A stretch of DNA of 64,000 nt, taken from contig CAZAYU010000005.1 of NCBI GenBank assembly GCA_964489445.1, positions 68,799 to 132,798 on the forward strand. Reading direction: 5' to 3'. The translations under genes were made by a program, and so were the position numbers. The notes under the pieces are model-generated. The model was given only the letters and a program-made list of their open reading frames with translations. It was not told the origin of the DNA and did no database searches. Position 1 is the stretch's first letter; the number at the start of each line of letters is the position of its first letter. This DNA comes from an uncultured Planctomycetia bacterium. GTDB lineage: Bacteria > Omnitrophota > Gorgyraeia > Duberdicusellales > 4484-171. Positions 36,180 through 64,000 of this stretch are shown here, piece after piece.

Positions 36180-37616
36180 TTATATTCTTGGCCTTAATAT
36201 CTTCCCGCTCTCTGTTTTTTTTATTTCTTTTACTATACGTATTTCTTTCGGAACTTTATATGCCGTAATTTTATTATAACAAAATTTGCGTAGTTTGTAG
36301 ATCAAGTTCTTATCTTTGACCCCATCTACCAAGACTACGTCTGCGTGCGGCAATTGCCCATAAACATCATGCGAAACACCGTATACTAAAGACTCCTTTA
36401 TATCGGAATACGAGCTTAATATTTCTTCTACTTCTATAGGAAAAATTTTCATCCCGGAAAAATTTATTACACTTTTTTCTCTTCCCTTGATAAAAAGAAA
36501 ACCTTCTTCATCTAAATACCCAAGGTCTCCTGTTTTAAACCATCCACAATCCAAAATCTGATCTTTGGTCTGCCAAGGAAAATAATATGCATCGAACATG
36601 CCTTTTCCTTTTATATAGACTTCTCCTACACCTTCATCATTCTTGTCTTTGATTTGAATTTGATAATCCGACAGAATTCCTCCCACTGATCCTCTTAATT
36701 TCTTATCCTTTTTTGTATTGATAAACGGTAACCCTACCTCGATAATGCCATACGCTTCACTGATTTCAATGCCAAATATATCAAAAAATTTCAGAATTTC
36801 CTTCTCTGTAAACCCAACTGCAGTAGAAATAGCCATTCTTATGCTAGAGAGATGTTTTCTCTCAACATCATTACTATTCATAATTATTCTGTAATGGAAT
36901 GGAGACGCATACATAAAGGTAAATTTATGCTTATTAAAAGACTCCAGCAAGACAGAAGGAAAATCTTTTCCGCATAAAATAACAGTTGCTGCTTTTCTTA
37001 GAAATAAAATTATTGTTACCACAAAATGATAGCTCATGGATAAAACCCAAACAATATTATCGTCAGCAGTGATGCCAAGACCCTCATTCGCAGCGTTTGT
37101 TCTTTCATAGATTGACTCATGCGATATCACAACCCCCTTGCTTTCACCTGTTGTGCCTGATGAAAATCTTATAAACGCAGGGTTTAGGGCACAAAATTTT
37201 TTCGGCAGTTTAGAATCCCCTTTTCTTTGATAAACAAATAACTTCCTATCTCCACAGCTTAACTGCTCAGCCTTGCTCATATCAAAAAATTCTACTTCCT
37301 TTCCTGATATTAAGAAATCGACATCAACACTCTTAATAACGTTCTCAACTTCGTCCCACGCTAAAGAAGGAGAAACAGGAACCATAACCCCTTCGCAGGA
37401 TAAAACAGCTAAGGATATCGATATATATTCAATGCTATCTTCTAGAAACAGCCCTACTTTTTTATACCCATATATTCCGAAAGTAGATAATTTTTTCTTA
37501 AGAGATGCAACATCTTTTAATAAATTTTCATATGTAATTTTCCTGCCACAATCAACAATGGCAATTCTACTCAAATTGCTTTTTGTTTCATCAAATATGA
37601 TATCGATAATATTCAT
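36180..37616 (-). CDS. AMP-dependent synthetase/ligase (acyl-CoA or acyl-ACP ligase-like)
   Basis: FSSGTTGESKGVVISH AMP-binding motif; start trimmed to Met overlapping upstream stop by 1 nt. Confidence 0.75.
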   Translation of the reverse strand: MNIIDIIFDETKSNLSRIAIVDCGRKITYENLLKDVASLKKKLSTFGIYGYKKVGLFLEDSIEYISISLAVLSCEGVMVPVSPSLAWDEVENVIKSVDVDFLISGKEVEFFDMSKAEQLSCGDRKLFVYQRKGDSKLPKKFCALNPAFIRFSSGTTGESKGVVISHESIYERTNAANEGLGITADDNIVWVLSMSYHFVVTIILFLRKAATVILCGKDFPSVLLESFNKHKFTFMYASPFHYRIIMNSNDVERKHLSSIRMAISTAVGFTEKEILKFFDIFGIEISEAYGIIEVGLPFINTKKDKKLRGSVGGILSDYQIQIKDKNDEGVGEVYIKGKGMFDAYYFPWQTKDQILDCGWFKTGDLGYLDEEGFLFIKGREKSVINFSGMKIFPIEVEEILSSYSDIKESLVYGVSHDVYGQLPHADVVLVDGVKDKNLIYKLRKFCYNKITAYKVPKEIRIVKEIKKTESGKILRPRI

Positions 37617-38809
37617 TATTTTATCATCTCCAAAGCTAAACAGCCTGAAGCCTCTCCTAAAGACATACATGTGCCCATTACGCGAATTGAGCCTAAAGCT
37701 TCATGCCGCGCAGAAATACACTTTCCTGCGCTAATAAGATTGTTTACAGTCTTTGACTTAAGGCATCTTTTTGGCATTTCATAATAATCATTTTCTTTCA
37801 CATATTTATAGCAAGTTCCTTTTTCTTCAAGCCATTGCTCAATAGGCCAAGCTCCCTTAACAACTCCATCGTCAAATTTCCTTGCCTCTAGCACATCTTC
37901 TTCTGTCAAAATATATTTTCCTATAGTGCCTGCACTGCCTCTCGCAAAAACTTCTTCACTTGTTTTCTCAACCTGAGCATTCTTCATTTCTTGTAGATGC
38001 TCTGTAATAAATCGGAATATCTCAGACAAATATTTTTCTTTAAGGTTTCTTGATGAATAAGGCATATTCATTTTCAGATAACCTTCTTCCAAAGTATCTC
38101 CTTTGACATACGTGGTATATTTCAAGAAATCAGGAGCACCCTCGAGAGAAACAAACTTCTCTGCCCAATAAGGCACTTTAATCATTAAGGATTCATCATC
38201 GCTGTTTATAATTTTAACGACCTTAACTGTATATCCACAAAGCTGCTGTTTTGCTTCATCTACTATGAGAAAAGGTATTCCTGCCAATTTTGAAACAACG
38301 CTGTCTCCGCTGCAATCAATAACTATCTTAGGCTCAATGCTAATGCTTTCTCCGCTCTTCTTCGCCCTCAAGGATGACAGTTGGTTGTTTTTTTTATCTA
38401 TTTCATAGATTTCTGTATTTAGCAGAGAGACTATATTTTTCTGGCTATCTAAAAGAGTCATCAAGAATGAAGCAAGGCTGTTATCCGGCAAAGGGAGAAC
38501 AAATACTTTGCCGATTCTTTTTGCCTCAGCAATATTGTATTTTGATTTTAAAAAACGAACTAGTTCCTCCGGAATCCCTTTGTTGAGGGTGTCATTAACA
38601 TCACAAGTTCCCTGCTGATTGTTTGCGTATAATCCGCAAACAGTTGTATGCATGCATTTATTTGCAACTCCTCCTAAATAATTAGTTTTTTCAACCAATA
38701 AAACCTTTAAGCCATTTCTTGCCGCTGCAACAGCTGCACATACGCCCGAAACACCTGCCCCGATAACAACAACATCACATTTAATAATTTTATCTACCAC
38801 TTTATCCAT
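37616..38809 (-). CDS. FAD-dependent oxidoreductase
   Basis: VVVIGAGVSGVCAAVAAARNGLKVLLVEKTNYLGG Rossmann GxGxxG. Confidence 0.6.
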   Translation of the reverse strand: MDKVVDKIIKCDVVVIGAGVSGVCAAVAAARNGLKVLLVEKTNYLGGVANKCMHTTVCGLYANNQQGTCDVNDTLNKGIPEELVRFLKSKYNIAEAKRIGKVFVLPLPDNSLASFLMTLLDSQKNIVSLLNTEIYEIDKKNNQLSSLRAKKSGESISIEPKIVIDCSGDSVVSKLAGIPFLIVDEAKQQLCGYTVKVVKIINSDDESLMIKVPYWAEKFVSLEGAPDFLKYTTYVKGDTLEEGYLKMNMPYSSRNLKEKYLSEIFRFITEHLQEMKNAQVEKTSEEVFARGSAGTIGKYILTEEDVLEARKFDDGVVKGAWPIEQWLEEKGTCYKYVKENDYYEMPKRCLKSKTVNNLISAGKCISARHEALGSIRVMGTCMSLGEASGCLALEMIK

Positions 38810-40088
38810 TAGGCATTTCTTTTAGAATATCAACTAAAAAGCCTATGTCCTTATCATTTAATAATGTATTTAAATACGATATCGTAAAATTAAGTTTTCC
38901 ATTGTAATTATTGACGAACACTCCCAGCCCGGGAGGAACTGGAGGGACAGGTAAATGAAATAGATTAGTTGCTTCTTTCCCAAATAGCTTTCTCCCATTA
39001 AAAACAGTTTCACCTAAATAGGAAAACGAAAACGAAGCCATCGCTCCCTTAGAGTAGAGCCCCAACAAATTGCTTAGAATTGGAATTGGCACAATTCTCA
39101 TAAGCATTACATTACTGCTGAATTTATCAGAGAACCTAGATTTTGTTTGTTCATATAATTGATTCTTTATCGATGTCATAGAATTTTCTGCTTCTTCATA
39201 GGTGAGTCTAAAGAACATGAAAGATAGATGATTAAAAAACATTTCCTTCTCTTCCCCTTTTTTCCTTGCATTCACCGTGACAGGAACAACCATACTATCA
39301 TTTTGAATTCCCTTCCTGTTTAAAAGCCGATTGAACGCATAAGTAACCCGGGACAATAAAAAAGGCATTATCAGCAAATACCCAGCCTCCTTATCAGCCC
39401 TTTCAATAATTTTCTTCGTTTGTTTCTCGTCAAACTGGATAACTTTATACTGATACTCTTGCTTTCCTTTTCCAATAGAAAGAGCCCTCACTTTTCTTTT
39501 TGGCGATAGCCAAATTAATTTTCGGTTAACATATCTTCCCGCCTTAAATTTCTCAAGCCACCTATTCAGGTGAGAAGGCCAACAGAACCTAGCAGGAAAG
39601 ACATAGCTCTGTTTGTCTTCTCTGTATCGCTCAAAAGCATCTACAAAAAACTCCGCTCCGAGGCCATCAAAAAGTTTATGGCTAAAAGTAAATACAGCAT
39701 ACGATTTCTCATTATGAGACACAATATCACAATAAAGATAGCCTTCACTGGATTGATCGTATTTTTGAGAAATTTCTGCACAAAAAGAAATAAAATTAGA
39801 AGCTTCTTGTATTCTATGTGAAGAAATAGACACAGGTTTGATCTCTTTATTCTTGTCTATTTTCCAATAAGGAGCAAGATTAAGAGCTCTTGCCACGCGC
39901 CCTTTAAATACGAAATGGCCACTAATAAATTGATTCAGATCTTGCTCAAAGGGATCAATATCAATCACGCCATTCACTTCAAAAACAATATGAAACACGT
40001 TTCCTTTACCGATCTTTTTTTCATTCATATGATCGAAAGCGTGGACCAACCAATCAATACCTGTTAGATATCTTTTACTGGCCATCAA
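38802..40088 (-). CDS. condensation-domain-like acyltransferase (HxxxDG motif; WS/DGAT or PapA5-like)
   Basis: 428 aa; FTFSHKLFDGLG matches HHxxxDG active-site signature. Confidence 0.45.
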   Translation of the reverse strand: MMASKRYLTGIDWLVHAFDHMNEKKIGKGNVFHIVFEVNGVIDIDPFEQDLNQFISGHFVFKGRVARALNLAPYWKIDKNKEIKPVSISSHRIQEASNFISFCAEISQKYDQSSEGYLYCDIVSHNEKSYAVFTFSHKLFDGLGAEFFVDAFERYREDKQSYVFPARFCWPSHLNRWLEKFKAGRYVNRKLIWLSPKRKVRALSIGKGKQEYQYKVIQFDEKQTKKIIERADKEAGYLLIMPFLLSRVTYAFNRLLNRKGIQNDSMVVPVTVNARKKGEEKEMFFNHLSFMFFRLTYEEAENSMTSIKNQLYEQTKSRFSDKFSSNVMLMRIVPIPILSNLLGLYSKGAMASFSFSYLGETVFNGRKLFGKEATNLFHLPVPPVPPGLGVFVNNYNGKLNFTISYLNTLLNDKDIGFLVDILKEMPNG

Positions 40089-40332
40089 TAACTTTGAGTA
40101 AGCATTGGGATAAAGAATTTATTGTGCTAAAATCTTCTTTGGATAAGCTTGTGTCAATCAATTTTAGATTAAAACTTTTCTCTATAGAAACAAGTAATTC
40201 AACAAAGCTCAAAGAATCAAGCCCCATAGAATGTAGCGGCTTATTGACATCAATAGATTCAGTTTCTATCGATAGTATCATAGAAATTTCATCCACTAAC
40301 TTATCCTGAATTTCTTGTATATCACAATTCAT
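40075..40332 (-). CDS. acyl carrier protein (ACP 1 of 3)
   Basis: 85 aa, HSMGLDSLSFVELLV with DSL phosphopantetheine site. Confidence 0.7.
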   Translation of the reverse strand: MNCDIQEIQDKLVDEISMILSIETESIDVNKPLHSMGLDSLSFVELLVSIEKSFNLKLIDTSLSKEDFSTINSLSQCLLKVIDGQ

Positions 40333-40350
40333 ATAACACTGATCCCTAGA

Positions 40351-41034
40351 TTATTTAAATATATACCCGTTGATCTCACTAACTTTATCGCCCTTAAAAT
40401 GAACCGTAAAGCTTTTAGCCCGGCTTTCCCAATAAGTCCATAAGTCAGAATCGACAGAAGACGTTTTATGTGTTGGCGGATACCCGTAAGCCATTAAAAC
40501 TGCTTTTTTGCTCATGCCTACTTTTATCTTTCCATTCTCAACATCTTCTTTCTCTTTGCTTGATAACTTCTTAAAATCTTCTTCCAGGGGATTATCATTT
40601 GAAAAATATCTATCAAACAACTCGTATAAATCTATCTTACTATGCTTCGCCGCACGCGTATAAGTGTACACTTTTTTTCCGGACACAACAGTAAACTTTA
40701 TCTTATTGCCCCCAAATTTATCGACTCTAACTTCTGTTCCTGCAGAAATCATTGCCCCTCTATGAAAATTTGTTGAAAGAAAATTCTTTTCTTTTTCAAA
40801 CCACATGTTCGCCTTTAAATAAAATACCTTACCTTTAACTCTTTTTTCCATGTTTCTTAGTTTTTCTCTTCTTTCCCTTATCTTCTTTTTTCTTTTTTGC
40901 TCTGGAGTCATCAATTTATCCCTATACTCTTGCGTTCCTGCAAAATTCATGTCATTTGCATACACATTTATTACTAGAGCTGACATTGATAACACTAATA
41001 TTAAGCTAAAATTAAGAATTATTTTTCTGGCCAT
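40351..41034 (-). CDS. secreted/periplasmic protein with C-terminal SmpA_OmlA (BamE)-like domain
   Basis: Signal peptide, K/E-rich coiled region, VGMSKKAVLMAYGYPP motif. Confidence 0.35.
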   Translation of the reverse strand: MARKIILNFSLILVLSMSALVINVYANDMNFAGTQEYRDKLMTPEQKRKKKIRERREKLRNMEKRVKGKVFYLKANMWFEKEKNFLSTNFHRGAMISAGTEVRVDKFGGNKIKFTVVSGKKVYTYTRAAKHSKIDLYELFDRYFSNDNPLEEDFKKLSSKEKEDVENGKIKVGMSKKAVLMAYGYPPTHKTSSVDSDLWTYWESRAKSFTVHFKGDKVSEINGYIFK

Positions 41035-41051
41035 ATTGCCCTTCTTTTTTA

Positions 41052-41993
41052 TTATATTGTTAGGTTAAAAACCGTTTTCTTATTTCTATCAAAAAACCTT
41101 ATATTTTTGATATTATCCGAAGACTCAAGGTTAACGTCGTTTCTTAACTTTATAAGATTTGAGTAAACATGTTTATTTTTAAGCATTAAAGCTGCTGAGG
41201 CACAGCAAAAGCTTGAACCTGATGCGACCCATCCCCATGCTGAATAATTGTTGAAAGAGACTATATTTTTCTCATCATCTTCTTTTCCTCCTGAAACTTG
41301 ATTGCACTCGATATTACAATACTTTGCTTTTCTTTTGCCATCGCTCAATAAAAAGAAAGCGCTTCCTTCCCCAGGAATAGATTCTACAATATTTAGCTTT
41401 TGAGTACATATGTATTCCATAGCAAGGCTTAACTCATCAACAGTTCCCACAAGGACATACTTACACCTTCCTTGATTAATCCACGCATCAGCTAATTGCA
41501 AAGCATTGCAAAATGGAAAACAGAAATCCGTCAGAGTAATTGCTGGCCCCTTAATATTTAATACCGATGCAATATATGATGCCGCAGCATTATGAACAGA
41601 ATGCGAAAATGTCGTTGGAGAAACGCTAGCTTCACCATAATCAAGGATATTATCCAAAAAATTAAATGTTGTCCTATGAGGACCAAATGATGTGGAAACA
41701 ATAACACCAACCTTTTCATTTTCGGCTATTTCTATTCCACTATCTTTAAACGCGTCCCACGCTGCTAAAACAGCCATCTTACAAAACCGATCAGATCGTC
41801 GACACTTTTTAAGTACATCTTTATCTTTCAAAACTTTATCATCTACGCTAAAAACAGGAATTGTCTTCTTTGTTATTGCTGAATATTCTGAAGATTTTGG
41901 TTCAGAATGATCTTGCTGTAAAGCTTTCACAAAGTTTTCAATCCCTCTTCCCGCGCTTGAAATTATTCCAATTCCTTGGATTTTCATAAACAA
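41052..41993 (-). CDS. ketosynthase-like protein lacking canonical active-site Cys (chain-length-factor-like)
   Basis: Thiolase-fold motifs SPTTFSHSVHNAAASYIASVLNIKGP but no TACSS-type Cys; 313 aa. Confidence 0.6.
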   Translation of the reverse strand: MFMKIQGIGIISSAGRGIENFVKALQQDHSEPKSSEYSAITKKTIPVFSVDDKVLKDKDVLKKCRRSDRFCKMAVLAAWDAFKDSGIEIAENEKVGVIVSTSFGPHRTTFNFLDNILDYGEASVSPTTFSHSVHNAAASYIASVLNIKGPAITLTDFCFPFCNALQLADAWINQGRCKYVLVGTVDELSLAMEYICTQKLNIVESIPGEGSAFFLLSDGKRKAKYCNIECNQVSGGKEDDEKNIVSFNNYSAWGWVASGSSFCCASAALMLKNKHVYSNLIKLRNDVNLESSDNIKNIRFFDRNKKTVFNLTI

Positions 41994-42024
41994 TTATACT
42001 TTTTGATAAAAATTATATGCCAGC

Positions 42025-42480
42025 CTATTTATCCGAGTAGTTATCAAGTATTTTCTTCTTTTGTTCTTCAAAGTCATCCTGAGTTATAAGTCCCTCTGAC
42101 AATAGCTTGCTGAGAGTTTTTATCTTAAATTCTACGCTATCTTCTAGCTCTATATCACTCTCGTCAGCATCTTCCCTTAATCTTGAATCATCTTCTGATA
42201 AACATTTAAAAGTCAACTCAGCTGTAGACCACCTAACAAACGGGGCCCAATTGCCACATTCAGATTTCATAGAATAAAGTTGCTTGTTTTTACTTATACA
42301 ATGCTCGTTTCCGATTCTATATAGCTTAGCCAACACGGTAGCACCTTTAGAAAATGGAGTAGAAGTGCTGCCAGAGATCATATAGGTATCTTTTCCTGTT
42401 CGAACTACTCCTCCAATTGCACATCCCGAAAACATAAAAATAATTAAAAAAAAGTATATAAAATAATTTATTTTCTTCAT
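42025..42480 (-). CDS. lipoprotein (lipobox FSGCA) with Cys pair and SHOCT-like C-terminal tail; paralogue of 49978-50292
   Basis: SGCAIGGVVRTGKDTYMIS...EHCISKNKQ...FKC aligns with the other lipoprotein. Confidence 0.45.
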   Translation of the reverse strand: MKKINYFIYFFLIIFMFSGCAIGGVVRTGKDTYMISGSTSTPFSKGATVLAKLYRIGNEHCISKNKQLYSMKSECGNWAPFVRWSTAELTFKCLSEDDSRLREDADESDIELEDSVEFKIKTLSKLLSEGLITQDDFEEQKKKILDNYSDK

Positions 42481-42502
42481 TGTCTCTCCTTAAATATTCA
42501 TT

Positions 42503-43648
42503 TTATTCTTCTCTATTGATTACAAGAGCCGCATTGTTCCCACCAAAAGCTAATGACGTTGACAAGCCGTACTGCCCTTTAACTTCTGTCTTTTTCTTTA
42601 ATGGAGAAATCCCTATTTCCTCATCTTCACTCTGGAATCCAGCACTTTTCGGAATCCAACCCGCTTTCAAAGCTAAAGCCGTAAACACAGCCTCGATTGC
42701 ACCAGCTGCCCCCAATGTGTGCCCAGTATAACCTTTAGTAGAAAGTACTTTAACGTCGGTGCCGAAAAGCTCACCAATTACTCTCCCTTCTACTTTATCA
42801 TTATCTAAAGTTGCAGTTCCATGCGCATTTATAAAATAAATATCTCGCAATTCAATCCCTGCCCCCTCTATTGCTTCCTTGATAGCATTTTTTAATCCAA
42901 CTCCATCTGGATGCGGAGCCGTTAAATGATGTGCATCTGATCCTGAACCATAAGCTGAAATATGCATCTTGGACAGGCCTCTTTTTTCTAGAATTAAAAC
43001 TCCTGCCCCCTCTCCAAGGTTTAACCCTTTTCTATTTTTATCAAATGGCGCACATACTGTATCACTCATAATTCCTAATGAATTGAATCCGCATAAAGGA
43101 ATTTTATTTAATTCATCTGCGCCACCGGCGATTACAATATCACACATATCATTCTTTAGCCAAGATATTGCAATCCCAATCGCATCAGCTCCTGAAGAAC
43201 ACGCATTAACAACAACGCTCTTTGGGCCATTTAATTTATACTTCTTTGCAATAACTTCCGCCAAATTTCCATTCAAATATTTGTTAACAGAAGTAATACA
43301 AGCTTGCCCTGTCTCTTTAAATTCTTTATAAAAATCAATATTATTTAGCTGGCTAGCTACCGTTGTTCCAAAACAGACACCAACCCTTTTATTGTTATCA
43401 AAAATATCTCCGTCGTAGCCTTCGATAGCTTCTTCGACAGCAGACAACAATAAGCTTAAAGTCCTATTTCTACACTTCGGCTGATACCCTCTAACCTCAA
43501 AAACAGGCTTATTTAGTTCCGTCTCAAACAAAGTAACTTTACCGACATTAATATATCCTTTGTCGAAAGTTTGTATTGTTTCTGTAATATTCCTACCCGC
43601 AGCCGAAATACAGCCCATTGCGGATATTGTAATCTGATTATTATTCAT
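42503..43648 (-). CDS. beta-ketoacyl-ACP synthase (KS, FabF/FabB-like)
   Basis: NACSSGADAIG active Cys, NAHGTAT, GHTLGAAG His motifs. Confidence 0.85.
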   Translation of the reverse strand: MNNNQITISAMGCISAAGRNITETIQTFDKGYINVGKVTLFETELNKPVFEVRGYQPKCRNRTLSLLLSAVEEAIEGYDGDIFDNNKRVGVCFGTTVASQLNNIDFYKEFKETGQACITSVNKYLNGNLAEVIAKKYKLNGPKSVVVNACSSGADAIGIAISWLKNDMCDIVIAGGADELNKIPLCGFNSLGIMSDTVCAPFDKNRKGLNLGEGAGVLILEKRGLSKMHISAYGSGSDAHHLTAPHPDGVGLKNAIKEAIEGAGIELRDIYFINAHGTATLDNDKVEGRVIGELFGTDVKVLSTKGYTGHTLGAAGAIEAVFTALALKAGWIPKSAGFQSEDEEIGISPLKKKTEVKGQYGLSTSLAFGGNNAALVINREE

Positions 43649-43651
43649 GTT

Positions 43652-43942
43652 TTATTCTGATTTATTTTCTATATTGGCTACAACATACTTTGCTAAGGTA
43701 TCCAATGAATAAAATATCTCTCGCCCTTTAGTCATATCCTTCACTTCTAACCCAAAGTTTCTTTGGAGTAAAACAACAATCTCAACAGCGTCCAAGGAAT
43801 CTAAGCCTAATCCATCACCAAAAAGAATCTCATCATCCTTGATATTTTCAGCCTTAACGTCCTCAAGAGATAGATGGTCTACCAGTAACTCTTTTAATTT
43901 CTTTCTTATTTCAACCAATCTTTTTTCTTCTGATTCCTGCAT
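43652..43942 (-). CDS. acyl carrier protein (ACP 2 of 3)
   Basis: DGLGLDSLDAVEIVVLLQRNFG. Confidence 0.8.
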   Translation of the reverse strand: MQESEEKRLVEIRKKLKELLVDHLSLEDVKAENIKDDEILFGDGLGLDSLDAVEIVVLLQRNFGLEVKDMTKGREIFYSLDTLAKYVVANIENKSE

Positions 43943-48006: not shown

Positions 48007-48013
48007 GTTTACA

Positions 48014-49919: not shown

Positions 49920-49977
49920 ACTATTTCCCTGAACTCCTATTATCAATACTAAATTGATTCCCTACCAGCCAAGAGTA

Positions 49978-57506: not shown

Positions 57507-58807
57507 TATTTTCTCCTATCAAAAAACCGAATTGGTTTTCTATTGTCTTGAGCATAAATAATTCTTTTCATAGCATCGTCTTTTTCTAAAATAATTATTG
57601 GTTTTACGCGTAGACTTGCCTGTATTCTTTCCTGTAAAAATTCTAAATCAAGGGCAAGATCATTAATAGCTACATGAATAATCAAACTGTCAGAAAGAGC
57701 GCTCTCGCTTATTGCCTCGATATAATATTCTTGAACTTCTTTGGTGCTATCTAATACAGCATAGACAGCTTGCGGATAAAGAGTCGTTCCTTTGACTTTC
57801 ATCATTTGTTTTTTCCTGCCAAGAATAGGCCCTAAACGCTTTGATTTTCTTCCGCACTTGCAAGGCTCACTCATCAAAAAACTAATATCCCCCGTCTTAT
57901 AACGCACTAACGGCATCCCCTCAATTCCAAGCGGTGTGATAACAACTTCTCCGGTTATTCCGTCATCCAAAATATTTCCTTGATCGTCAACGATCTCAAT
58001 AACTGCTAAATCAGGATGTAAATGCCCTCCGTGTTGCGCTTCGCATTCACAAAAAGTGGTAACTATCTCTGAAGAGGCATAAGTGGAATACACTTTTGCA
58101 CCCCAAATTTCTTCCAGCTCAAGGCCAACACTTAGCAACTCTACTTTTTCATTACGCAGGGGTTCGCCAATACAAATAATTCGTTTCACGCTTGATAAGG
58201 GCTGCTCTCCATCTTCCTTTTTCATATAAAGTCCCAATTTTCTAATAAAAGATGGCACACCCACAATGGCCGTTGGTTTCATTTTACCAATAACTTCTTT
58301 GTGGCTATCTAAACTTCCATGTCCATTACGTATTGCAGATGCTCCTAAATTAGTTATTCCTAAAAAATAGGCTAACCCTGCAATAAAACATCTATCCATT
58401 GTGCATGTTAAAAGAACAATATCTTTTTTCGTTAAACCGCAACCAACAAATGATTTCTCTTCATTATATGCAAGACGCGTCAAATCTTGCCCTGTGTACA
58501 TAATCTTGATAGGCTTCCCTGTCGTTCCAGACGAAAGAACAATATCAACAATCTGCTCTGGGTTTACTGCGCGAAATCCATCATTATCATGTTCAATAAA
58601 CAATTTCTCTGTTAAAGGAACATCTTTAAAATTTATAAGATTAACTTTTGTAACATCCTTAATCAGGCCATCTAAAAATTTCCTATAAAAGGGAGACTGG
58701 CTCAAACAATATTTAAGATGGGCTTGAAGCAATTGCGTTTGAACTTGCTCGATTATTTCTTTGCTTTCAAATCCGATATCTTTATATTTATAAAAATCTC
58801 TCATCAT
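57506..58807 (-). CDS. phenylacetate-CoA ligase family adenylating enzyme (PaaK/CapK-like)
   Basis: SSGTTGKPIKIMYT P-loop, 433 aa. Confidence 0.7.
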   Translation of the reverse strand: MMRDFYKYKDIGFESKEIIEQVQTQLLQAHLKYCLSQSPFYRKFLDGLIKDVTKVNLINFKDVPLTEKLFIEHDNDGFRAVNPEQIVDIVLSSGTTGKPIKIMYTGQDLTRLAYNEEKSFVGCGLTKKDIVLLTCTMDRCFIAGLAYFLGITNLGASAIRNGHGSLDSHKEVIGKMKPTAIVGVPSFIRKLGLYMKKEDGEQPLSSVKRIICIGEPLRNEKVELLSVGLELEEIWGAKVYSTYASSEIVTTFCECEAQHGGHLHPDLAVIEIVDDQGNILDDGITGEVVITPLGIEGMPLVRYKTGDISFLMSEPCKCGRKSKRLGPILGRKKQMMKVKGTTLYPQAVYAVLDSTKEVQEYYIEAISESALSDSLIIHVAINDLALDLEFLQERIQASLRVKPIIILEKDDAMKRIIYAQDNRKPIRFFDRRK

Positions 58808-59556
58808 GTTTGATCCATTTTTATTAATTCATTTCTCATGATTTCTCTCACCCTATTCTTCAGAACAAAGGAATTCATATCTTTGTAATCGTTCCAATGT
58901 AAGGCTAATAACTTGTGAATCTTAATAGTCCCAGGGTTTAATACAAAGGAACCCTTAGCCGGTTTATTTTCATTTCCTGAAATACAAAAAGGAACAATAG
59001 AGCACTTTGTTTCTATTGCTGCCCTAAAAATAGAGCTATAGAATTGTCCTGGTTCCTTACTGTCTGATCTCGTCCCTTCTGGAAATGAAACGACATTCAC
59101 TCCTTCTCCGATTAACTTTTTCATTTTTAACAAAAATACATCAATGGACATTTCCTTGACACTCAAATATCCGGCAACCTTAGCACCAAGGCCAAGAACA
59201 GGTAGCTTAAAAGGCCAAGTGTTCACTATTTGAATACCTTCAAAAGGCAAACATGCCATCAAGAACGCATCGGAAGCAGACCTGTGATTGCAAATAAAAA
59301 TAAACGGCCCCACTCTATTGTCATTCCTGCCAAAATCCTCATACTGAACTTTAATGAATGGAAAAGGAAGAACATAGATAATAATCCTTCCGTACCAACC
59401 AATAGCTCTTCGCCATATTTTTAATATAACACGTCTTGGAAAAACCAAAGCACCCAATGAAACCAATAATACTACCGAGGGAATAGCAATAATCGAAAAG
59501 ACGAGAAACATCAAATAAAAAACTACATTTAGAATAAATTTATTAATTTTTTCCAA
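58804..59556 (-). CDS. 1-acyl-sn-glycerol-3-phosphate acyltransferase-like (PlsC/LPLAT)
   Basis: ICNHRSASDAF HX4D motif, FPEGTRS motif III. Confidence 0.75.
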   Translation of the reverse strand: MEKINKFILNVVFYLMFLVFSIIAIPSVVLLVSLGALVFPRRVILKIWRRAIGWYGRIIIYVLPFPFIKVQYEDFGRNDNRVGPFIFICNHRSASDAFLMACLPFEGIQIVNTWPFKLPVLGLGAKVAGYLSVKEMSIDVFLLKMKKLIGEGVNVVSFPEGTRSDSKEPGQFYSSIFRAAIETKCSIVPFCISGNENKPAKGSFVLNPGTIKIHKLLALHWNDYKDMNSFVLKNRVREIMRNELIKMDQT

Positions 59557-59567
59557 AATAAATTCGC

Positions 59568-59837
59568 TTATCTATCAACTGAGAAATTCCCTTCTTTATA
59601 AAGAGATTCAATAAAACTATAAATATCGCCTAATGTCCTTATTTCTCGAACCCTATTATCATCCCTTATTTTCACGCCAAATTTTTTCTGAAGAGCAACA
59701 ACTAGATCAACAATGTCAAGACTGTCTAATCCAAGGTCTTCAAAGATGCCTTTCTCAGAGGACAGCTCTCCTTTATTTATTTCAAAAGACTCCTCAAAAA
59801 CTTGGTTGACCATCTCTTCTATCTTTTTCTTATCCAT
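59568..59837 (-). CDS. acyl carrier protein (ACP 3 of 3)
   Basis: EDLGLDSLDIVDLVVALQKKFG. Confidence 0.8.
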   Translation of the reverse strand: MDKKKIEEMVNQVFEESFEINKGELSSEKGIFEDLGLDSLDIVDLVVALQKKFGVKIRDDNRVREIRTLGDIYSFIESLYKEGNFSVDR

Positions 59838-59855
59838 AGATAACTTCTCCTTTTC

Positions 59856-61079
59856 TTAAAGTATCTTTTTGCAGATTAAAGACGCGTTTATCCCTCCGAA
59901 AGCAAAACAATTCTTTAGTATAGAATTAATCTTCTTGTCTTGAATCTCCATGACATGGTTAATGCCTTTACAGTCTTCTGCAATATCATCCAAATTCTTC
60001 GTGGGATAAATTTTGCTTTTCTGCATCATTTTAAGAGCAGCAATCAATTCTATAGACCCTGAAGCACCTAAAGTATGCCCTATATACCCCTTCAAACTAC
60101 TTACTGGTACTTTATCCCCAAATATCTCCTTTAAAGCTCCAGCCTCTTCTTGATCTCCATGAATAGTAGCTGTTGCGTGTGCATTAATATAATCAATGTT
60201 AGCTGACTGCATGCCTGCGCTTTTAAGTGCCTCTTTCATACAGAAAACCATTGCTTCTCTACTTGGTTGGCTTACATGCTCTCCACTTCCGCATGTATGA
60301 TACCCGGCTACTTCCGCATAAATATTTGCATTCCTTTTTTGTGCATGTTCGTAATCTTCTAAAATGAGGATTCCACTTCCTTCACCACAGACTAATCCAT
60401 CTCTACCCTTATCAAAAGGCCTTGGAGTACACTTCGGATTATCATTAAAGTGTGTAGATGTTGCGAAGAGAATATCAAAGGAGCCTGCAACGATTGCATG
60501 TAACTCTTCTGCCCCTCCACAGAGAATAACATCTTGCTTGCCAGACTGAATAATCCCATAAGCCGCACCTACTGCCTGTAGGGCAGATGCACAAGCTGCT
60601 GATGTTGCCATGACATATCCTTTAATCCCAAAACATTGTGAAACATTCATCGCTGCTGTGTGAGAAACACATTTGAAAAAATTCATTGAAGATAATTTAG
60701 ATAAATCTTTTTCTGGAAGCATCATTTCAAACGTATCATTCATTGCTTCAGCTCCACCCATTGTGGATCCGATGATGCATCCCGTGCGAGCAGATGCAAT
60801 AACGCTTTCACTTAAGCCAGAATCCTTCACTGCCTCTTCAGATGCTTGCGCAGCAAAGATGCCCATCCGCCCCATAGAACGTCTCTTTTTTCTTGGAATG
60901 CTTCTTTCATCCTCTATCTTTGCAGGAGCGGCTATTAATGTGTTTAGCCCAATATACTCTTTCCACTTTTCCATTCTCTGGACAGCGCTTCTATTAGTCT
61001 CTAGCCCCTGAATATACTCTTCGACATTAACTCCTAAAGGACAAACTACACCCATCCCAGTTATCACAACTCTTTTCAT
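59856..61079 (-). CDS. beta-ketoacyl-ACP synthase II-like (FabF family)
   Basis: MKRVVITGMGVVCPLG, SAACASALQA active Cys, HATAT, GHTLGASG. Confidence 0.85.
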   Translation of the reverse strand: MKRVVITGMGVVCPLGVNVEEYIQGLETNRSAVQRMEKWKEYIGLNTLIAAPAKIEDERSIPRKKRRSMGRMGIFAAQASEEAVKDSGLSESVIASARTGCIIGSTMGGAEAMNDTFEMMLPEKDLSKLSSMNFFKCVSHTAAMNVSQCFGIKGYVMATSAACASALQAVGAAYGIIQSGKQDVILCGGAEELHAIVAGSFDILFATSTHFNDNPKCTPRPFDKGRDGLVCGEGSGILILEDYEHAQKRNANIYAEVAGYHTCGSGEHVSQPSREAMVFCMKEALKSAGMQSANIDYINAHATATIHGDQEEAGALKEIFGDKVPVSSLKGYIGHTLGASGSIELIAALKMMQKSKIYPTKNLDDIAEDCKGINHVMEIQDKKINSILKNCFAFGGINASLICKKIL

Positions 61080-62572
61080 CGGTGTAACCTTGCTTTAATA
61101 AAATTATTGTAATCATCTCGCCCAACAATACTCCTTGCCACAATAAAAGAAGACATCATCGCACCCACGACTCCTGGCAAAACAGAACTTTGCCCACACG
61201 CATAAAGATTTCGCAAAGGAAGCTTTCCAAACACATTAAACTGACCCATCTTTTGTTTGATCCCATAGGCTGTACATTCGTATGAGTTCAAATAATCCCT
61301 ATACGTAAGAATAGAAGCAGCGCAAATAACTTTAAATGAATCCCTGTAAGCTGGATTATATTGAAAAATTCTTTCTTTAATCTGTTGCTCCCGGTTCTTT
61401 TTGTATTCATAGTAGGCCTTCGGCCGTTTTCCAACACTAGAATCCAGCCATTGAGAGACATCTTCACTAGACGAAGACTCCATGGCGGTAAGGACCTTGA
61501 CCTTTTTGCTATCAATATCTTCATAAGAAGTCATTAGTACAAGAGCTGAGCAACCATTGTCGGAAGGCTCAAACAGCGTGTTCACGTCATCCGAAGGAAG
61601 AAGGGAAACAATGCTTGGTGTAAAATCATTATCATCAGCTTCGACAATACCAAACAGAGAAAAAAATCCAGACGCAGGCTCAAAATCACTAACCCTCATC
61701 AAAAAAGCCTTAGTCAAATTATCTTTCGGAAGGCTCTCAACAATAGCCTTGGGATGAATTGTAAAAATACATTGATTACAAGATAACTCCTCGCCCGTAC
61801 TTAAAATGAACTTCTTGACAATATTGCCCTCGACATCTAAAAACTTATCAATAGTGCACTTTGTTTTAATATCAACTCCAAGCTCAAGAAGTGCATCTTT
61901 AAACGCGCTAACGAATGCTCCTCCGCCTCTCTTAATCCGCACGACGCTATCGTACATTCCATACGCAACACGAAAATGATTCGCAACTGAAACCTCTGAC
62001 GGCCTTACCCCGTAACACATACAAAATGTTGATAATATACCCTTTAAGTATCTGCTCTTAAAAGACTTATCTAGGACTTCTTGTAGGCTAATATAATCCT
62101 CATCTAAGATATTAGTAACTTCAGTAATCCTTAAAAGATCTAAAGAAGCAGTCTCCTCGTAGATCTTCTTAGCTAAATTAAAAAAATAATCAATGCCCTC
62201 TTCCTCACCCGGGAAAAATTCTTTGAGTTTTTCAATAAAGCTTAAAACCCCATTCGGCATATAATATTTCTTGTGATCATTCTCGAAGATATACGCCTGG
62301 CCCTCTTTATCGGAAAGTATTACTGGCTCAATTTTATTCTCTATCCCCAGAACACTGAGCATATCATGCAAAACCCCATTCTCTAAGAATGCCCCTGTAA
62401 AATGGAATCCTGTATCAAAAGGAATTCCTTCTTTAACAAAACGTGACATACTCCCACCAATACGATTTGACTTCTCAACAATTAAAACCTTCTGTCCGTT
62501 TAAAGCAAGAATATTCGCAAGTGTCAAGCCACTTATTCCACTACCCACAACTATACTGTCATAAAATTTCAT
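61076..62572 (-). CDS. CrtI-like (phytoene-desaturase family) FAD-dependent oxidoreductase/desaturase
   Basis: YDSIVVGSGISGLTLANILALNGQKVLIVEKSNRIGG; about 500 aa COG1233 architecture; start trimmed to MKFYD. Confidence 0.6.
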   Translation of the reverse strand: MKFYDSIVVGSGISGLTLANILALNGQKVLIVEKSNRIGGSMSRFVKEGIPFDTGFHFTGAFLENGVLHDMLSVLGIENKIEPVILSDKEGQAYIFENDHKKYYMPNGVLSFIEKLKEFFPGEEEGIDYFFNLAKKIYEETASLDLLRITEVTNILDEDYISLQEVLDKSFKSRYLKGILSTFCMCYGVRPSEVSVANHFRVAYGMYDSVVRIKRGGGAFVSAFKDALLELGVDIKTKCTIDKFLDVEGNIVKKFILSTGEELSCNQCIFTIHPKAIVESLPKDNLTKAFLMRVSDFEPASGFFSLFGIVEADDNDFTPSIVSLLPSDDVNTLFEPSDNGCSALVLMTSYEDIDSKKVKVLTAMESSSSEDVSQWLDSSVGKRPKAYYEYKKNREQQIKERIFQYNPAYRDSFKVICAASILTYRDYLNSYECTAYGIKQKMGQFNVFGKLPLRNLYACGQSSVLPGVVGAMMSSFIVARSIVGRDDYNNFIKARLHR

Positions 62573-62582
62573 ACTACCAACC

Positions 62583-63329
62583 TTAGATAACAAGCCCTCC
62601 ATTAACCCCAATAACTTGCCCGTGAATATACATATCCTTCTCATTGCATAAAAACCCTACAACAGAGGCAATATCCTTCGGCTTTCCTGTCTTTTTCAAA
62701 GGAATCAAAGGCAAAACTTTGTCTTTTGGTATGCCTTTAGTCATATCCGTATCAATAAAACCTGGAGAGACAACATTAACAAAAATATTCTTCTTTCCGA
62801 CCTCTCGCGCCAAAGCTTTGCACGCCCCTATAAGTCCTGCCTTAGAAGCAGAATAATTAACCTGCCCTGCTTGGCCCACCTCTCCCGCAGTTGAAGAAAT
62901 TGCAACAATCCTTCCTCTTTTTTCTCTCAACATTGGGAAAAGAACAGAGTTCGTAACATTATAAAAACCATTTAGATTAGTTGCAATGACATCATTCCAT
63001 TCTTTCTCCGTTGTCCACATCAAAAGATTATCCCTAGTAATGCCTGAATTAAAAACTACTACATAAGGAGGAGTTTCTTCAGCTTTATCGGACAAGGCTT
63101 TCTTAGTTTCAGTATAACTAGAAACATCAAATGAAGATAGTTCACATTTACGCCCTATCTTTTCCACTTCCTTTTTAACAATATCTGCAGCGTTATTATT
63201 ATTTCGATAGGTAAGCCATATATCGAAACCCAAGCTTGCCAGCTTAAGAACAATGGCTTTTCCTATTCCTCTGCTTCCTCCAACTACTAATGCAATTTTG
63301 TTTTTTATTTCATTCATTTTATACTCCAT
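62583..63329 (-). CDS. fabG: 3-oxoacyl-ACP reductase (SDR, FabG-like)
   Basis: ALVVGGSRGIGKAI, NSGI, YSASKAG catalytic Tyr-Lys. Confidence 0.85.
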   Translation of the reverse strand: MEYKMNEIKNKIALVVGGSRGIGKAIVLKLASLGFDIWLTYRNNNNAADIVKKEVEKIGRKCELSSFDVSSYTETKKALSDKAEETPPYVVVFNSGITRDNLLMWTTEKEWNDVIATNLNGFYNVTNSVLFPMLREKRGRIVAISSTAGEVGQAGQVNYSASKAGLIGACKALAREVGKKNIFVNVVSPGFIDTDMTKGIPKDKVLPLIPLKKTGKPKDIASVVGFLCNEKDMYIHGQVIGVNGGLVI

Positions 63330-63336
63330 TTATTAG

Positions 63337-63999
63337 TTAAAATTTCCATGTTGTCCCAAAAAGAAACATGTTCACATTTATACCGTCATTAGGCAATTTT
63401 CTATTTGCATTAGATAAATGCCGATATCGGTATTCAACATCAAAAGACAAATTTTCCTTCAAATCATAAGAAATTCCTATACCCATCTGAGGAATAAAAT
63501 TGTATTGTGTTGATTGCTCATTTGTCTGTTGCGACATATAAAGAACACCACCACCTACAAAAAAGTATGGATTTATTTTTTCCGTAGCTGGATATGAGTA
63601 TTTCATAAGAATATCAAATCCAACTTCAATATTGTTATCCGGACTAATAATCGTATTTAAAAAAGTTTCTGCTAAAAATTCTGTCTCTCCTTTAACATTA
63701 ATATCGTGAGCATTAAAGACTTTTTCAGCAACATATTCAACAATATCTGCTGCTCCAATGCCGAGCTTGTCAACATCAAAAGCAAATCTAAATATTGAAG
63801 GAACAATCTTATAATCATTTTTTCCACTCAAGTCCCCTTTGGCGAAACCTGTATAATAAGAAAAGCTCTTATAATATGGGGTATCTTTTTCAGAACCGTC
63901 TGCTTTTTGGGCATACGAATTATAACTTATTGATGCAGTGAGCAATATAACGATGATAATAATTAATGGGAAACGAAATGTTTTTTGGTAAGAATTCAT
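63337..63999 (-). CDS. outer-membrane beta-barrel acyl-hydrolase, PagL-like (lipid A deacylase family)
   Basis: Signal peptide, amphipathic beta strands, C-terminal TWKF; RYRHLSNAN resembles the PagL H-x-S-N catalytic dyad region; first gene of operon in window (promoter beyond window edge). Confidence 0.45.
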   Translation of the reverse strand: MNSYQKTFRFPLIIIIVILLTASISYNSYAQKADGSEKDTPYYKSFSYYTGFAKGDLSGKNDYKIVPSIFRFAFDVDKLGIGAADIVEYVAEKVFNAHDINVKGETEFLAETFLNTIISPDNNIEVGFDILMKYSYPATEKINPYFFVGGGVLYMSQQTNEQSTQYNFIPQMGIGISYDLKENLSFDVEYRYRHLSNANRKLPNDGINVNMFLFGTTWKF

Positions 64000-64000
64000 A

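Follow-up and report, generated by a model that had tools for sequence, protein, structure and literature searches.

We analysed a 64,000-nucleotide stretch of DNA (hereafter, the window) from an uncultured Omnitrophota bacterium (GenBank contig CAZAYU010000005.1, positions 68,799 to 132,798), in which 30 consecutive open reading frames (ORFs), designated g1 to g30, run on the minus strand from 63999 to 36180 (ORF listing and translation). Homology and gene order make it likely that these genes constitute one operon encoding a complete type II polyketide synthase/fatty-acid synthase (PKS/FAS)-like pathway of the aryl-polyene (APE)/flexirubin superfamily, which would make an outer-membrane lipid and which represents a subfamily widespread among anaerobes. 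In this subfamily, an APE core is joined by a second pair of ketosynthase (KS) and chain-length factor (CLF), a CrtI-like flavoprotein, three radical S-adenosylmethionine (SAM) enzymes and a tail module. The operon probably makes a lipid of polyene type that is tailored by radical SAM enzymes and exported to the outer membrane. An earlier annotation, made by a model from the letters and ORFs of the window without database searches (the original prediction), had read the region as a single APE-like and ladderane-like lipid pathway with radical SAM tailoring. Our results agree with this general picture and change several of its details.

Relationship to aryl-polyene and flexirubin clusters

Domain calls on g1 to g30, all of which lie on the minus strand, come from Pfam and NCBIfam scans, with scores given against the cut-off of each model. 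The APE reference was the cluster of E. coli CFT073 (L088:33727-48748), whose proteins were compared with those of the window by reciprocal blastp; the labels ApeA to ApeR are ones that we take its genes to carry, from gene order and from usage in the literature. ApeR and ApeO find their reciprocal best hits, over the full length, in the ketosynthases g4 (59856-61079; 44% identity) and g23 (42503-43648; 33%), both of which have PF00109 and PF02801 domains and which score 446.6 bits on PRK09116 (cut-off 470) and 302 bits on PRK09185 (cut-off 407), respectively. Reciprocal best hits likewise pair ApeF and ApeE with the acyl carrier proteins (ACPs) g5 (59568-59837; 38%; PF00550; NF003757, 65.9 bits, cut-off 65) and g22 (43652-43942; 37%; PF00550; NF006617, 72 bits, cut-off 70), ApeQ with the 3-oxoacyl-ACP reductase (ketoreductase, KR) g2 (62583-63329; 39%; NF004200 FabG, 278.6 bits, cut-off 273), and ApeK with the 4HBT/YbgC-type thioesterase g13 (51452-51928; 37%; PF13279 and PF03061; TIGR00051, 69.6 bits, cut-off 68.7).

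A dehydratase pair of the ApeI/ApeP type is also present, as g12 plus the C-terminus of g8, and is predicted from sequence to form a heterodimer. ApeP and the C-terminus of g8 (56001-57506) are reciprocal best hits (29%, E 4e-9), and this part of g8 also matches the solved ApeP chain 6qsr_B (E 5e-5). ApeI and g12 (51941-52309) are reciprocal best hits at 22% identity (E 1e-4), with a common GHF...P.LPGV catalytic motif. In g12, where the PF22818 and PF07977 matches are both weak, the motif reads GHF...PVLPGV and holds the catalytic His; His40 is invariant in 39 homologues. The original prediction had called this enzyme FabZ-like. A hot-dog dehydratase it is, although of the ApeI-like and not the FabZ type, with 21.5 bits on the FabZ model against a cut-off of 113.

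ApeJ corresponds to two window genes. Its GT2 half (residues 10-239) matches g19 (45450-46646; 35%), a family-2 glycosyltransferase (GT2; PF00535) joined to a DUF2062 membrane domain (PF09835), and its LpxL-like half (residues 261-549) matches g20 (44567-45457; 25%, E 7.5e-22), a lipid A late acyltransferase-like enzyme of the LpxL family (PF03279). The g20-type family has an HxGNWQ motif in 42 of 43 homologues; the position of its Gln is acidic in LpxL-type enzymes. Weaker matches link ApeD to g6 (58804-59556; E 1.6e-6), a membrane acyltransferase of the PlsC/LPLAT family (PF01553, E 2.2e-17) with the HX4D motif NHRSASD, and, reciprocally, ApeM to g10 (52968-55352; E 3e-10), an HAE3-like inner-membrane lipid exporter of the MMPL/resistance-nodulation-division type (PF03176 and PF00873; HpnN and HAE3 families at about 1e-21). 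The export trio ApeL/ApeM/ApeN is mirrored by three neighbours, g9, g10 and g11, each from the Pfam family of its counterpart: g9 (55345-56004; PF03548, E 1.2e-12) is a LolA-like periplasmic carrier, and g11 (52306-53007; PF11659, 22.0 bits, cut-off 22.3) is a DUF3261/LolB2-like lipoprotein whose gene directly follows that of the MMPL protein, the same placing as that of ApeN in E. coli. The LolA-like, DUF3261 and CLF counterparts are recognised at the Pfam or profile level only, and the CLF-like g25 has no direct blastp hit to ApeC. A further likeness to APE clusters is a truncated, Cys-less KS in the place of a chain-length factor. No enoyl reductase is recognised, although the flavoproteins g3 and g29 could act as reductases.

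The features of an APE cluster that are found here include a KS/CLF pair, an ApeR-type KS, a KR, two ACPs, a thioesterase, the export trio, a GT2 and acyltransferases. On the strength of the reciprocal best hits to 10 Ape proteins of CFT073, together with the weaker or family-level matches to 5 others, we consider the assignment to the APE/flexirubin superfamily sound, in line with the APE-like logic recognised earlier. The best-scoring named NCBIfam models are those of flexirubin proteins, namely FlxY (g7, 454 bits, cut-off 520), FlxB (g2, 279.5 bits, cut-off 340), LolA2_flexi (g9, 91.5 bits, cut-off 125) and LolB2_flexi (g11, 24.5 bits, cut-off 60), with all scores under the equivalog cut-offs. 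The FlxY match (NF053551) spans the full length of g7 (57506-58807), a PaaK/FlxY-type adenylate-forming ligase (PaaK families at about 1e-48) that is the presumed activator of the starter acid. No match to tyrosine ammonia-lyase or to the dialkylresorcinol enzymes DarA/DarB is listed for the 30 products in the Pfam and NCBIfam scans, and flexirubin clusters, to our knowledge, have neither radical SAM nor CrtI-like enzymes. Judged by homology, then, the region is a true member of the superfamily that fits neither the E. coli type of APE cluster nor the flexirubin type.

Conservation of the cluster

An alignment of g8 was used as the query in a scan of one genome per species from about 185,000 species, and relatives were found in 495 species genomes. 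The best 80 of these 495 comprise 31 from Nitrospirota/Thermodesulfovibrionia, 18 from Omnitrophota, 17 of Desulfobacterota type (Geobacteraceae, Pelobacter, Desulfuromonadales, Syntrophales and Desulfobacteraceae), 4 labelled Planctomycetota, 3 from other named taxa and 7 unclassified. When all 30 window proteins were searched by tblastn at these 80 loci, g2 to g19 appeared in the same order in essentially every related locus that was long enough. The order g13 to g30 was found in Candidatus Aceula, a distant member of the Omnitrophota, a Desulfobacterales metagenome-assembled genome (MAG), a Hydrogenedentes-labelled MAG and Desulfosarcina sp. BuS5, and, in a scan centred on g23 and g28, on many metagenome contigs, one of them 390 kb long. 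At protein identities of 30-70%, the g2-g30 order is shared by four phyla or more, and the tail order of third ACP (g27), condensation-like enzyme (g28), flavin adenine dinucleotide (FAD)-dependent oxidoreductase (g29) and ligase (g30) is conserved in relatives. This synteny of the whole layout across phyla upholds the single pathway that was originally proposed.

The closest homologues are those of Candidatus Aceula meridiana (88% identity for g8, 83% for g28), followed by those of other Omnitrophota MAGs. Features of the window that are lineage-specific are g1, g21, the pair g15 and g24, and the lack of a third B12-type radical SAM gene. The first gene of the operon, g1 (63337-63999; PF09411, 69.6 bits, cut-off 23), encodes an outer-membrane beta-barrel of the PagL (lipid A 3-O-deacylase) family, in which an H-x-S motif (RHLSN) and a signal peptide are recognised; tblastn finds it in 9 of the 80 related loci, mostly Omnitrophota, and similar-sized upstream ORFs occur in a few more. 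The lipoprotein g21 (43962-44525), which has no family match, is confined to the Aceula clade, where a single homologue was found (in L089, 85% identity). The original prediction had regarded the radical SAM, CrtI-like and PagL-like genes as unusual additions. This holds for the lineage-restricted g1 only; a large, catalogued family has the CrtI-like and radical SAM genes as its conserved core, and they are no peculiarity of this genome.

Relatives vary in several respects. Many have a third B12-type radical SAM gene between that of the PF12831 flavoprotein and that of the terminal ligase (L086:12408-13844, L087:12508-13941, L090:12392-13822); it is absent from the window, Candidatus Aceula and Desulfosarcina sp. 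BuS5. In the latter, a cultured sulfate reducer (L171, AXAM01000001.1 65762-87018), the same cluster layout is interrupted between the DUF3261-position gene and the ApeI-like gene by an AAA_14/DUF4143 ATPase, a small ORF and a helix-turn-helix regulator on the opposite strand, plus a small ORF on the same strand. Because of these opposite-strand genes, the Desulfosarcina cluster cannot be a single transcript. Four variant loci (L096, L117, L142, L148) keep the ApeO-like KS, ACP, GT2 and LpxL-like genes in a different arrangement; L148 has no hit to either B12-type radical SAM protein, and the g18-like gene of the other three is only about 38% identical. These loci look like sister subfamilies that would be useful for comparative chemistry. 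We also considered the tail module as a rare feature, given 189 homologues of g28, and rejected this view, as tblastn finds the module in most loci that reach far enough. Upstream of the FabG gene, 42 related loci have no conserved starter-unit genes; the neighbours there are heterogeneous, either housekeeping-like (PheT-, MutL- and PurF-like products, for example, recognised by eye) or the PagL-like barrel.

Organization and boundaries

The co-directional run of minus-strand genes described in the original prediction comprises 30 ORFs and not 28. Junction spacing ranges from -62 to +41 nt, such that no gap exceeds 41 nt. Neighbouring genes do overlap, as was noted before, at 15 junctions and by 1-62 nt in place of the 1-40 nt then given; the overlap of g29 and g30, for instance, is 55 nt. 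A hairpin resembling an intrinsic terminator, with a 15-bp stem followed by a T-run, closes the operon at 36011-35976 on the minus strand, about 170 nt past the stop codon of g30. A hairpin scan finds no comparable site inside the cluster, which matches the single distal terminator already reported. Inside the cluster, sigma-70-like matches occur about as often as chance predicts (52 versus 53 expected; 60 versus 52 expected) and are uninformative. The original prediction had seen no promoter in the window.

A candidate promoter is found just beyond position 64000. The metagenome contig L001 has the sequence of the window, with 0 mismatches over 18 kb in an exact-match comparison, and reaches 3.5 kb further upstream. 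There, 23-51 nt beyond position 64000 and directly upstream of the PagL-like g1 (L001:3456-3508), are a near-consensus TTGACT-17 nt-TATAAT element and a GGAAAGGA ribosome-binding site. Further upstream in L001 lie an unrelated SEC-C protein gene and a nucleotidyltransferase/HEPN pair. Because of the promoter-like site and these unrelated genes, we conclude that the cluster ends at the window edge, and the extension past this edge that had been thought possible is not borne out. The unit is g1-g30, complete in the window except for its promoter. In L001, the metagenome gene call for g1 starts 108 nt further upstream and would run through the promoter-like site; the ATG at 63999 is the likelier start for this reason.

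Ketosynthases, chain-length-factor-like partners and other enzymes

Searches of the ORFs with profile hidden Markov models, proposed with the original prediction as a check, confirmed nearly every assignment. Pfam and NCBIfam matches, with alignment of the KS triads, bear out three ACPs, three complete ketosynthases, a FabG, a 4HBT thioesterase and two ligases; PlsC- and LpxL-like acyltransferases, a GT2-membrane fusion, an MMPL exporter, a LolA-like carrier and lipoproteins; and two B12-type radical SAM enzymes, a radical SAM-SPASM-hot-dog fusion, and CrtI-like and PagL-like proteins.

The Cys-His-His triad is complete in g4, g14 and g23. The second complete ketosynthase, g14 (50322-51458; PF00109 and PF02801), is extra to the APE set: its identity is about 31% to both ApeR and ApeO, neither of which has it as best hit. 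Among solved structures, its nearest relative is chain B of 9s5h, a heteromeric KS entry (173.6 bits, versus 150 for B. subtilis FabF). This entry may be the amxFabF2/amxFabFmut heterodimer of anammox bacteria; a 2026 preprint gives no Protein Data Bank (PDB) code, and a PDB sequence search with g5 listed only generic acyl carrier protein entries, none identifiable as amxACP.

Two KS-like proteins had been said to lack the catalytic Cys. This is true of g16 (49230-49946; 238 amino acids), which corresponds to the N-terminal half of a KS only and has Glu at the Cys position, and not of g25 (41052-41993; 313 amino acids), which keeps Cys in the active-site column in this genome. The residue is Ser in the two homologues of g25 that we examined, and both catalytic His are missing; on these grounds g25 was rejected as an active KS. 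By itself g16 has no Pfam match. However, 12 of 17 homologues match PF00109, the family profile aligns with FabF residues 63-190 (E 2e-5), and the gene is present in 46 related loci. PF00109 matches g25 in its N-terminal part only, together with PF13723, and the match of g25 to PDB 6qsp_B is weak (E 0.0095). Since g16 has Glu for Cys, and g25 has an unconserved Cys and lacks the His pair, we class both as chain-length-factor-like from their sequences; g16 would be the partner of g14, and g25 that of g23, in the manner of ApeC. Small lipoproteins are encoded between each KS gene and that of its CLF-like partner: g15 (49978-50292; no family match) and g24 (42025-42480), which has a SHOCT tail (PF09851). 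The two are paralogues (37% identity, E 2e-15), and these insertions are not present in Candidatus Aceula, the closest relative, or in more distant relatives. At the position corresponding to g24, L086, L087, L089 and L090 have no such gene.

The CrtI/amine-oxidase-family FAD enzyme g3 (61076-62644; PF01593, E 3.8e-15) is a distant relative of CrtD and carotenoid isomerase, and scores far under the CrtD and CrtISO cut-offs. It was found in 55 related loci at 41-86% identity, and 97 of its residues are at least 97% invariant among homologues. The tail of the operon starts with g26 (40351-41034), a secreted accessory protein with a weak, BamE-like C-terminus (PF04355, E 8e-4, under cut-off); homologues are 35-51% identical in about 10 related loci and 77% identical in L089. 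The third ACP, g27 (40075-40332; PF00550 and PF23297), is followed by g28 (38802-40088), previously taken as an HxxxDG acyltransferase. The His/Asp motif stands (HxxxD, H137 and D141), with His137 invariant and Asp141 near-invariant among homologues. The family is corrected by a structural model with a predicted local distance difference test (pLDDT) score of 89.8, for which Foldseek gives matches to condensation, epimerization and cyclization (C/E/Cy) domains of nonribosomal peptide synthetases at E about 1e-22 to 5e-22 and template-modelling (TM) scores of 0.58-0.74. We therefore describe g28 as a free-standing enzyme of condensation-domain fold. The FAD-dependent oxidoreductase g29 (37616-38809; PF12831, 238.5 bits) was missed in the original gene list. 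The last gene, g30 (36180-37670; PF00501 and PF13193), encodes an AMP-binding acyl-CoA/acyl-ACP ligase that matches the long-chain fatty-acid-CoA ligase family at E 1e-73, under cut-off. Among the 30 products, the Pfam and NCBIfam scans recognise no enoyl reductase of the FabI, FabK or FabV type, and list no match to the FabD or FabH families.

Radical SAM enzymes

Covalent fusion of a radical SAM-SPASM enzyme (PF04055 and PF13186) to the ApeP-like dehydratase subunit (PF22817) is seen in g8. Its CxxxCxxC motif (C38/C42/C45) and its SPASM cysteines are invariant among homologues, and the nearest named families, AhbD and NirJ, are reached with 118 bits, far under cut-off. The most conserved protein of the cluster is g17 (48014-49255), which has a Rossmann, B12-binding-like domain and a radical SAM domain (PF02310 and PF04055, both weak; CxxxCxxC at C173/C177/C180). 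Its identity across phyla is 64-93%. In a set of 42 homologues that spans several phyla, 175 of 413 residues (42%) are at least 97% invariant, an exceptional degree of conservation among biosynthetic enzymes, and the database proteins that it matches at E <= 1e-20 number more than 6000. The best match of its structural model (pLDDT 84.8) is AprD4 (TM 0.78), a radical SAM 1,2-diol dehydratase that is independent of cobalamin. The B12-binding signal of g17 is weak.

By comparison, g18 (46633-48027) is a full member of TIGR04072, 'rSAM_ladder_B12', the family of lipid biosynthesis B12-binding/radical SAM proteins (609 bits, cut-off 360; aligned over 1-443 of 443). After TIGR04072, the highest scores are those of BzaD (186 bits) and Trp 2-C-methyltransferase (124 bits), and the best solved relative is TsrM (6wte, E 3.6e-26). 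These nearest enzymes methylate aromatic sp2 carbons, for which reason g18 might fit as a C-methylase that replaces the missing ApeB; this is only a lead. C196, C200 and C203 of g18 are invariant, as are the cluster-binding cysteines of all three enzymes. Given these cysteines and the 42% invariance of g17 across phyla, we read the three radical SAM enzymes, from their sequences, as functional.

Proposed pathway

Apart from the g8 fusion and the enoyl-reductase search, we infer the steps that follow from homology, and this includes the starter, the tailoring reactions, the anchor and the cellular location. The ligase g7 would adenylate a carboxylic-acid starter, probably an aromatic one, and load it onto a dedicated ACP, g5 or g22. 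The ApeR-like g4 and the ApeO/ApeC-like pair g23/g25 would then extend the chain with malonyl-ACP from the housekeeping FAS, and the KR g2 together with the heterodimeric dehydratase (g12 as the catalytic subunit, plus the g8 hot-dog domain) would take beta-keto groups to the enoyl stage. The chain would stay unsaturated, since no enoyl reductase is recognised. While bound to the ACP, it may be tailored by the radical SAM-SPASM part of g8, by g17, by g18 (possibly as a C-methylase) and by the flavoprotein g3, with the second KS/CLF pair, g14/g16, forming part of this tailoring and extension block. The thioesterase g13, the acyltransferases g6 and g20, and g19 are predicted to attach the chain to an anchor, be it a glycolipid, a lipid A-like molecule or a lysophospholipid, and the tail module g27-g30 to activate a second acid and join it via an ester or amide bond. 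The product would be carried to the outer membrane by the MMPL protein g10, the LolA-like g9 and the LolB-like g11. In this lineage, the PagL-like esterase g1 may act on lipid A or on the product itself.

A bolder version of this scheme, which we hold tentatively and with less than even confidence, is that this 26-30-gene family, carried by about 500 species of anaerobes, makes an undescribed class of lipid. In it, an unsaturated chain of APE type would be methylated, cross-linked or cyclised by radical SAM enzymes while still bound to its carrier, and the product would reside in the outer membrane, possibly on lipid A by way of the LpxL- and PagL-like enzymes.

Several points weigh against our preferred reading of the cluster as one APE/flexirubin-superfamily pathway for an outer-membrane, polyene-type lipid. 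By blastp, the window cluster has no counterparts of ApeA, ApeB (a methyltransferase) or ApeG, and g7 gives no hit to ApeH and is no orthologue of that ligase. Matches are weak for ApeI, ApeC, ApeD, ApeM and ApeN. Transcription of g1-g30 as one unit is read from the gene layout, the aromatic starter from the resemblance of g7 to a ligase family, and targeting to the outer membrane from family names. No gene for starter-unit biosynthesis is present in or next to the cluster. The chemistry of g3, g29 and the radical SAM enzymes g8, g17 and g18 is likewise putative: 'B12 methylase' may be wrong for g17, given that its best fold match is the cobalamin-free AprD4, and g3 or g29 could be chain-saturating reductases, in which case the product would be no polyene. 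Our literature search found no published product for TIGR04072, for Geobacter aryl-polyene clusters or for Omnitrophota ladderane clusters. Finally, the related Kuenenia cluster kuste3335-3352 gave no new lipid when expressed in E. coli, where its two radical SAM proteins were undetected (PMC4790861).

Alternative explanations

It is unlikely, in our view, that the cluster represents an O2-independent route to polyunsaturated fatty acids (PUFAs) or hydrocarbons, in which CrtI-like and radical SAM enzymes desaturate a FAS II product for cytoplasmic-membrane phospholipids. This hypothesis was put forward for the Kuenenia and Desulfotalea homologues by Rattray in 2009, and Desulfotalea psychrophila does make C31:8 and C31:9 hydrocarbons (PMC2649909). 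A CrtI-family flavoprotein and a PlsC-like acyltransferase are indeed at hand in the window. Yet the APE-type KS/CLF and ApeI/ApeP set, with no enoyl reductase, would yield unsaturation without any desaturase, and the MMPL/LolA/LolB-like export proteins, the LpxL-like acyltransferase and the GT2 point to the outer membrane rather than to bulk phospholipid. In addition, the Pfa/Ole pathways are now regarded as the source of the long polyunsaturated hydrocarbons. The Kuenenia genes, moreover, gave no PUFA in E. coli (PMC4790861). True ladderane lipids, with fused cyclobutane rings, are very unlikely as the product; this reading would make Omnitrophota and the other carriers unrecognised producers. 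Full TIGR04072 membership of g18 speaks for this idea, as do the CrtI-like enzyme, KS/CLF-type pairs, dedicated ACPs and dehydratase, all of which are enzyme classes of the anammox candidate clusters. A further point in its favour is the resemblance of g14 to chain B of 9s5h, an entry that may be the anammox amxFabF heterodimer. In the literature, however, ladderanes are known only from anammox bacteria, and D. psychrophila, which has the same cluster type, had none (PMC2649909). The family is carried by 495 species of non-anammox lineages, the favoured candidate set kuste3603-3608 is different, the window dehydratase is of the ApeI/ApeP type and not of the FabZ type, and most of the cluster consists of orthologues of genes that make and export an APE pigment.

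If several independent pathways lay side by side by chance, for example an APE-like cluster, a radical SAM cassette and a ligase/ACP/condensation module, this would explain why the tail module g26-g30 has no APE counterpart, why word-indexed searches return 189 homologues of g28 and more than 2500 of g8, why L096, L117, L142 and L148 are without parts of the set, and why relatives differ by one additional radical SAM gene. We nevertheless consider such a chance arrangement quite unlikely. The g2-g30 order is maintained across phyla at protein identities as low as 30%, genes overlap without internal terminators, and a radical SAM domain is covalently fused to the ApeP-like subunit. Counterparts of ApeR, ApeQ and ApeF lie upstream of the radical SAM genes, and those of ApeO, ApeC and ApeE downstream, and this interleaving of Ape orthologues with the extra genes argues against a chance assembly. 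Most improbable of all is that these are the ordinary fab, lpx and pls genes of housekeeping fatty-acid and lipid A synthesis. The original prediction had named ordinary fab genes, along with radical SAM genes of unrelated pathways under independent promoters, as the outcome that would overturn it. Certainly, g2 passes the FabG equivalog cut-off and g5 that of its ACP model, and LpxL-, PlsC- and PagL-family proteins are present. But no match to FabD, FabH, FabI, AccABCD, LpxA/C/D or PlsX/Y is listed for the 30 products, all three ketosynthases fall under the FabF/FabB equivalog cut-offs (TIGR03150, for example, with 359.6 versus 493.75 bits), and g12 fails the FabZ models. The best counterparts are accessory APE genes of E. 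coli, whose housekeeping FAS is separate, and the signature protein g8 is carried by only 495 of about 185,000 species.

Surroundings of the cluster

Downstream of the terminator are unrelated genes of housekeeping type, which encode a 6-pyruvoyl tetrahydropterin synthase-like (PTPS-family) protein, an amino-acid permease-EIIA fusion, a MatE transporter and a GTPase. A tRNA scan and an Rfam scan of the window found nothing. Almost all genes in window positions 1-64000 are on the minus strand, and the cumulative GC skew falls near-monotonically over this range, with negative values in nearly every 2-kb bin, which fits a single replichore with a strong gene-strand bias. A DUF2062 protein that stands alone (23712-24239), some 21 kb away from the cluster, adjoins an AsmA/DUF748-like protein (22361-23704). 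DUF2062 is also the membrane half of g19, and a link via outer-membrane lipid transport is conceivable.

Significance

The family to which this cluster belongs is large, ancient and strongly constrained, yet an orphan in its chemistry. The instance itself is not new: the type was described in 2009, it is detected by antiSMASH, and the class has been reported as expressed in Omnitrophota. What we add is that the cluster combines a full APE pathway with a 'ladderane-like' module, that one radical SAM enzyme is fused to a dehydratase subunit, and that culturable carriers have the same layout. These points offer a concrete experimental route to the chemistry of the radical SAM enzymes. The family shares TIGR04072 and several enzyme classes with the candidate genes for ladderane synthesis, a pathway that has been hard to study for two decades because anammox bacteria are not genetically manipulable. 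If an undescribed lipid class is indeed made, the radical SAM-SPASM part of g8 would represent in-line radical tailoring within a type II PKS/FAS, for which there is no characterised precedent; the homologous enzymes of anammox bacteria, TIGR04072 and CrtI-like, would represent a side branch derived from this chemistry, and their function could be approached in culturable Geobacter or Desulfosarcina. The Omnitrophota are mostly uncultured and in part host-dependent nanobacteria, and a specialised outer-membrane lipid would cost them about 28 kb of a small genome.

Comparison with known systems

The cluster differs from that of E. coli in that ApeJ is split into two genes, its GT2 half carrying DUF2062, and in that ApeP is fused to a radical SAM-SPASM enzyme. 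Genes of the window that go beyond the APE set are those for the further KS/CLF pair g14/g16, the CrtI-like flavoprotein g3, the B12-type radical SAM enzymes g17 and g18, the third ACP g27, the condensation-fold enzyme g28, the other flavoprotein g29, the additional ligase g30 and the PagL-like barrel g1. The hosts also differ: the window comes from an anaerobic Omnitrophota bacterium and not from a proteobacterium or a member of the Bacteroidota.

There is also a likeness to the 'extended FAS II' clusters that Rattray described in 2009 in Kuenenia, Desulfotalea psychrophila, Geobacter and Pelobacter, with genes for radical SAM, phytoene-desaturase-like, PaaK-like-ligase, glycosyltransferase and membrane proteins (PMC2649909). 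Ladderanes were not found in D. psychrophila, a carrier of this cluster type, in the same study (PMC2649909). The antiSMASH class 'ladderane' is based on Rattray 2009, TIGR04072 too goes back to these clusters, and biosynthetic gene clusters of this class have been reported, and found to be expressed, in MAGs of Omnitrophota, Desulfobacterota and others, with function unknown (PMC9902471). Compared by published gene lists, the Kuenenia stuttgartiensis (kuste3335-3352) and Desulfotalea-type clusters have the same inventory as the core of the window: a glycosyltransferase, a phytoene-desaturase-like enzyme, a hot-dog dehydratase, two ACPs, a FabG, two adjacent radical SAM enzymes, a phenylacetyl-CoA-ligase-like enzyme, two FabF proteins plus a non-canonical FabF, and a lipid-transport membrane protein. 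Window genes that fill this inventory include g3 for the desaturase-like enzyme, g4, g14, g23, g16 and g25 for the FabF-type proteins, g5, g22 and g27 for the ACPs, g7 for the ligase, g19 for the glycosyltransferase and g10 for the membrane protein. This inventory and the 609-bit score of g18 confirm the ladderane-like resemblance noted at the outset, and synteny with the window is seen at loci of MAGs that bear the labels Geobacter, Pelobacter, Desulfuromonadales and Desulfobacterales. There are differences as well. In the published lists, two SAM methylases are part of the Kuenenia locus, and several of the window genes are missing from it; the window lineage, in turn, adds PagL-like and small lipoprotein genes and is without the third B12-type radical SAM gene of many relatives. 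The window is a further member of a known, catalogued and chemically orphan family, of a cluster type described in 2009.

The currently favoured candidate for ladderane synthesis is anammox Cluster I (kuste3603-3608), a set of six genes reported to be exclusive to ladderane producers, which encodes amxACP, amxFabZ, amxFabF2/amxFabFmut, a phytoene-dehydrogenase-like enzyme and a B12-type radical SAM enzyme. The window cluster is not a strict ladderane cluster. Cluster I is reported only from ladderane-producing Brocadiia, whereas the window family spans Omnitrophota, Nitrospirota, Desulfobacterota and others. The dead KS of Cluster I is full length (about 412 amino acids) and thus longer than g16 and g25, its dehydratase is of the FabZ type, whose model g12 fails, and it has no export, acyltransferase or ligase genes. 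Both nonetheless draw on the same classes of enzyme: a KS whose partner is a dead KS, as in a KS/CLF heterodimer, along with a dedicated ACP, a dehydratase, a B12-type radical SAM enzyme and a flavoprotein of the CrtI-like kind. By sequence resemblance, the set formed by g14/g16, g17/g18 and g3 looks like a Cluster I module embedded in an APE cluster.

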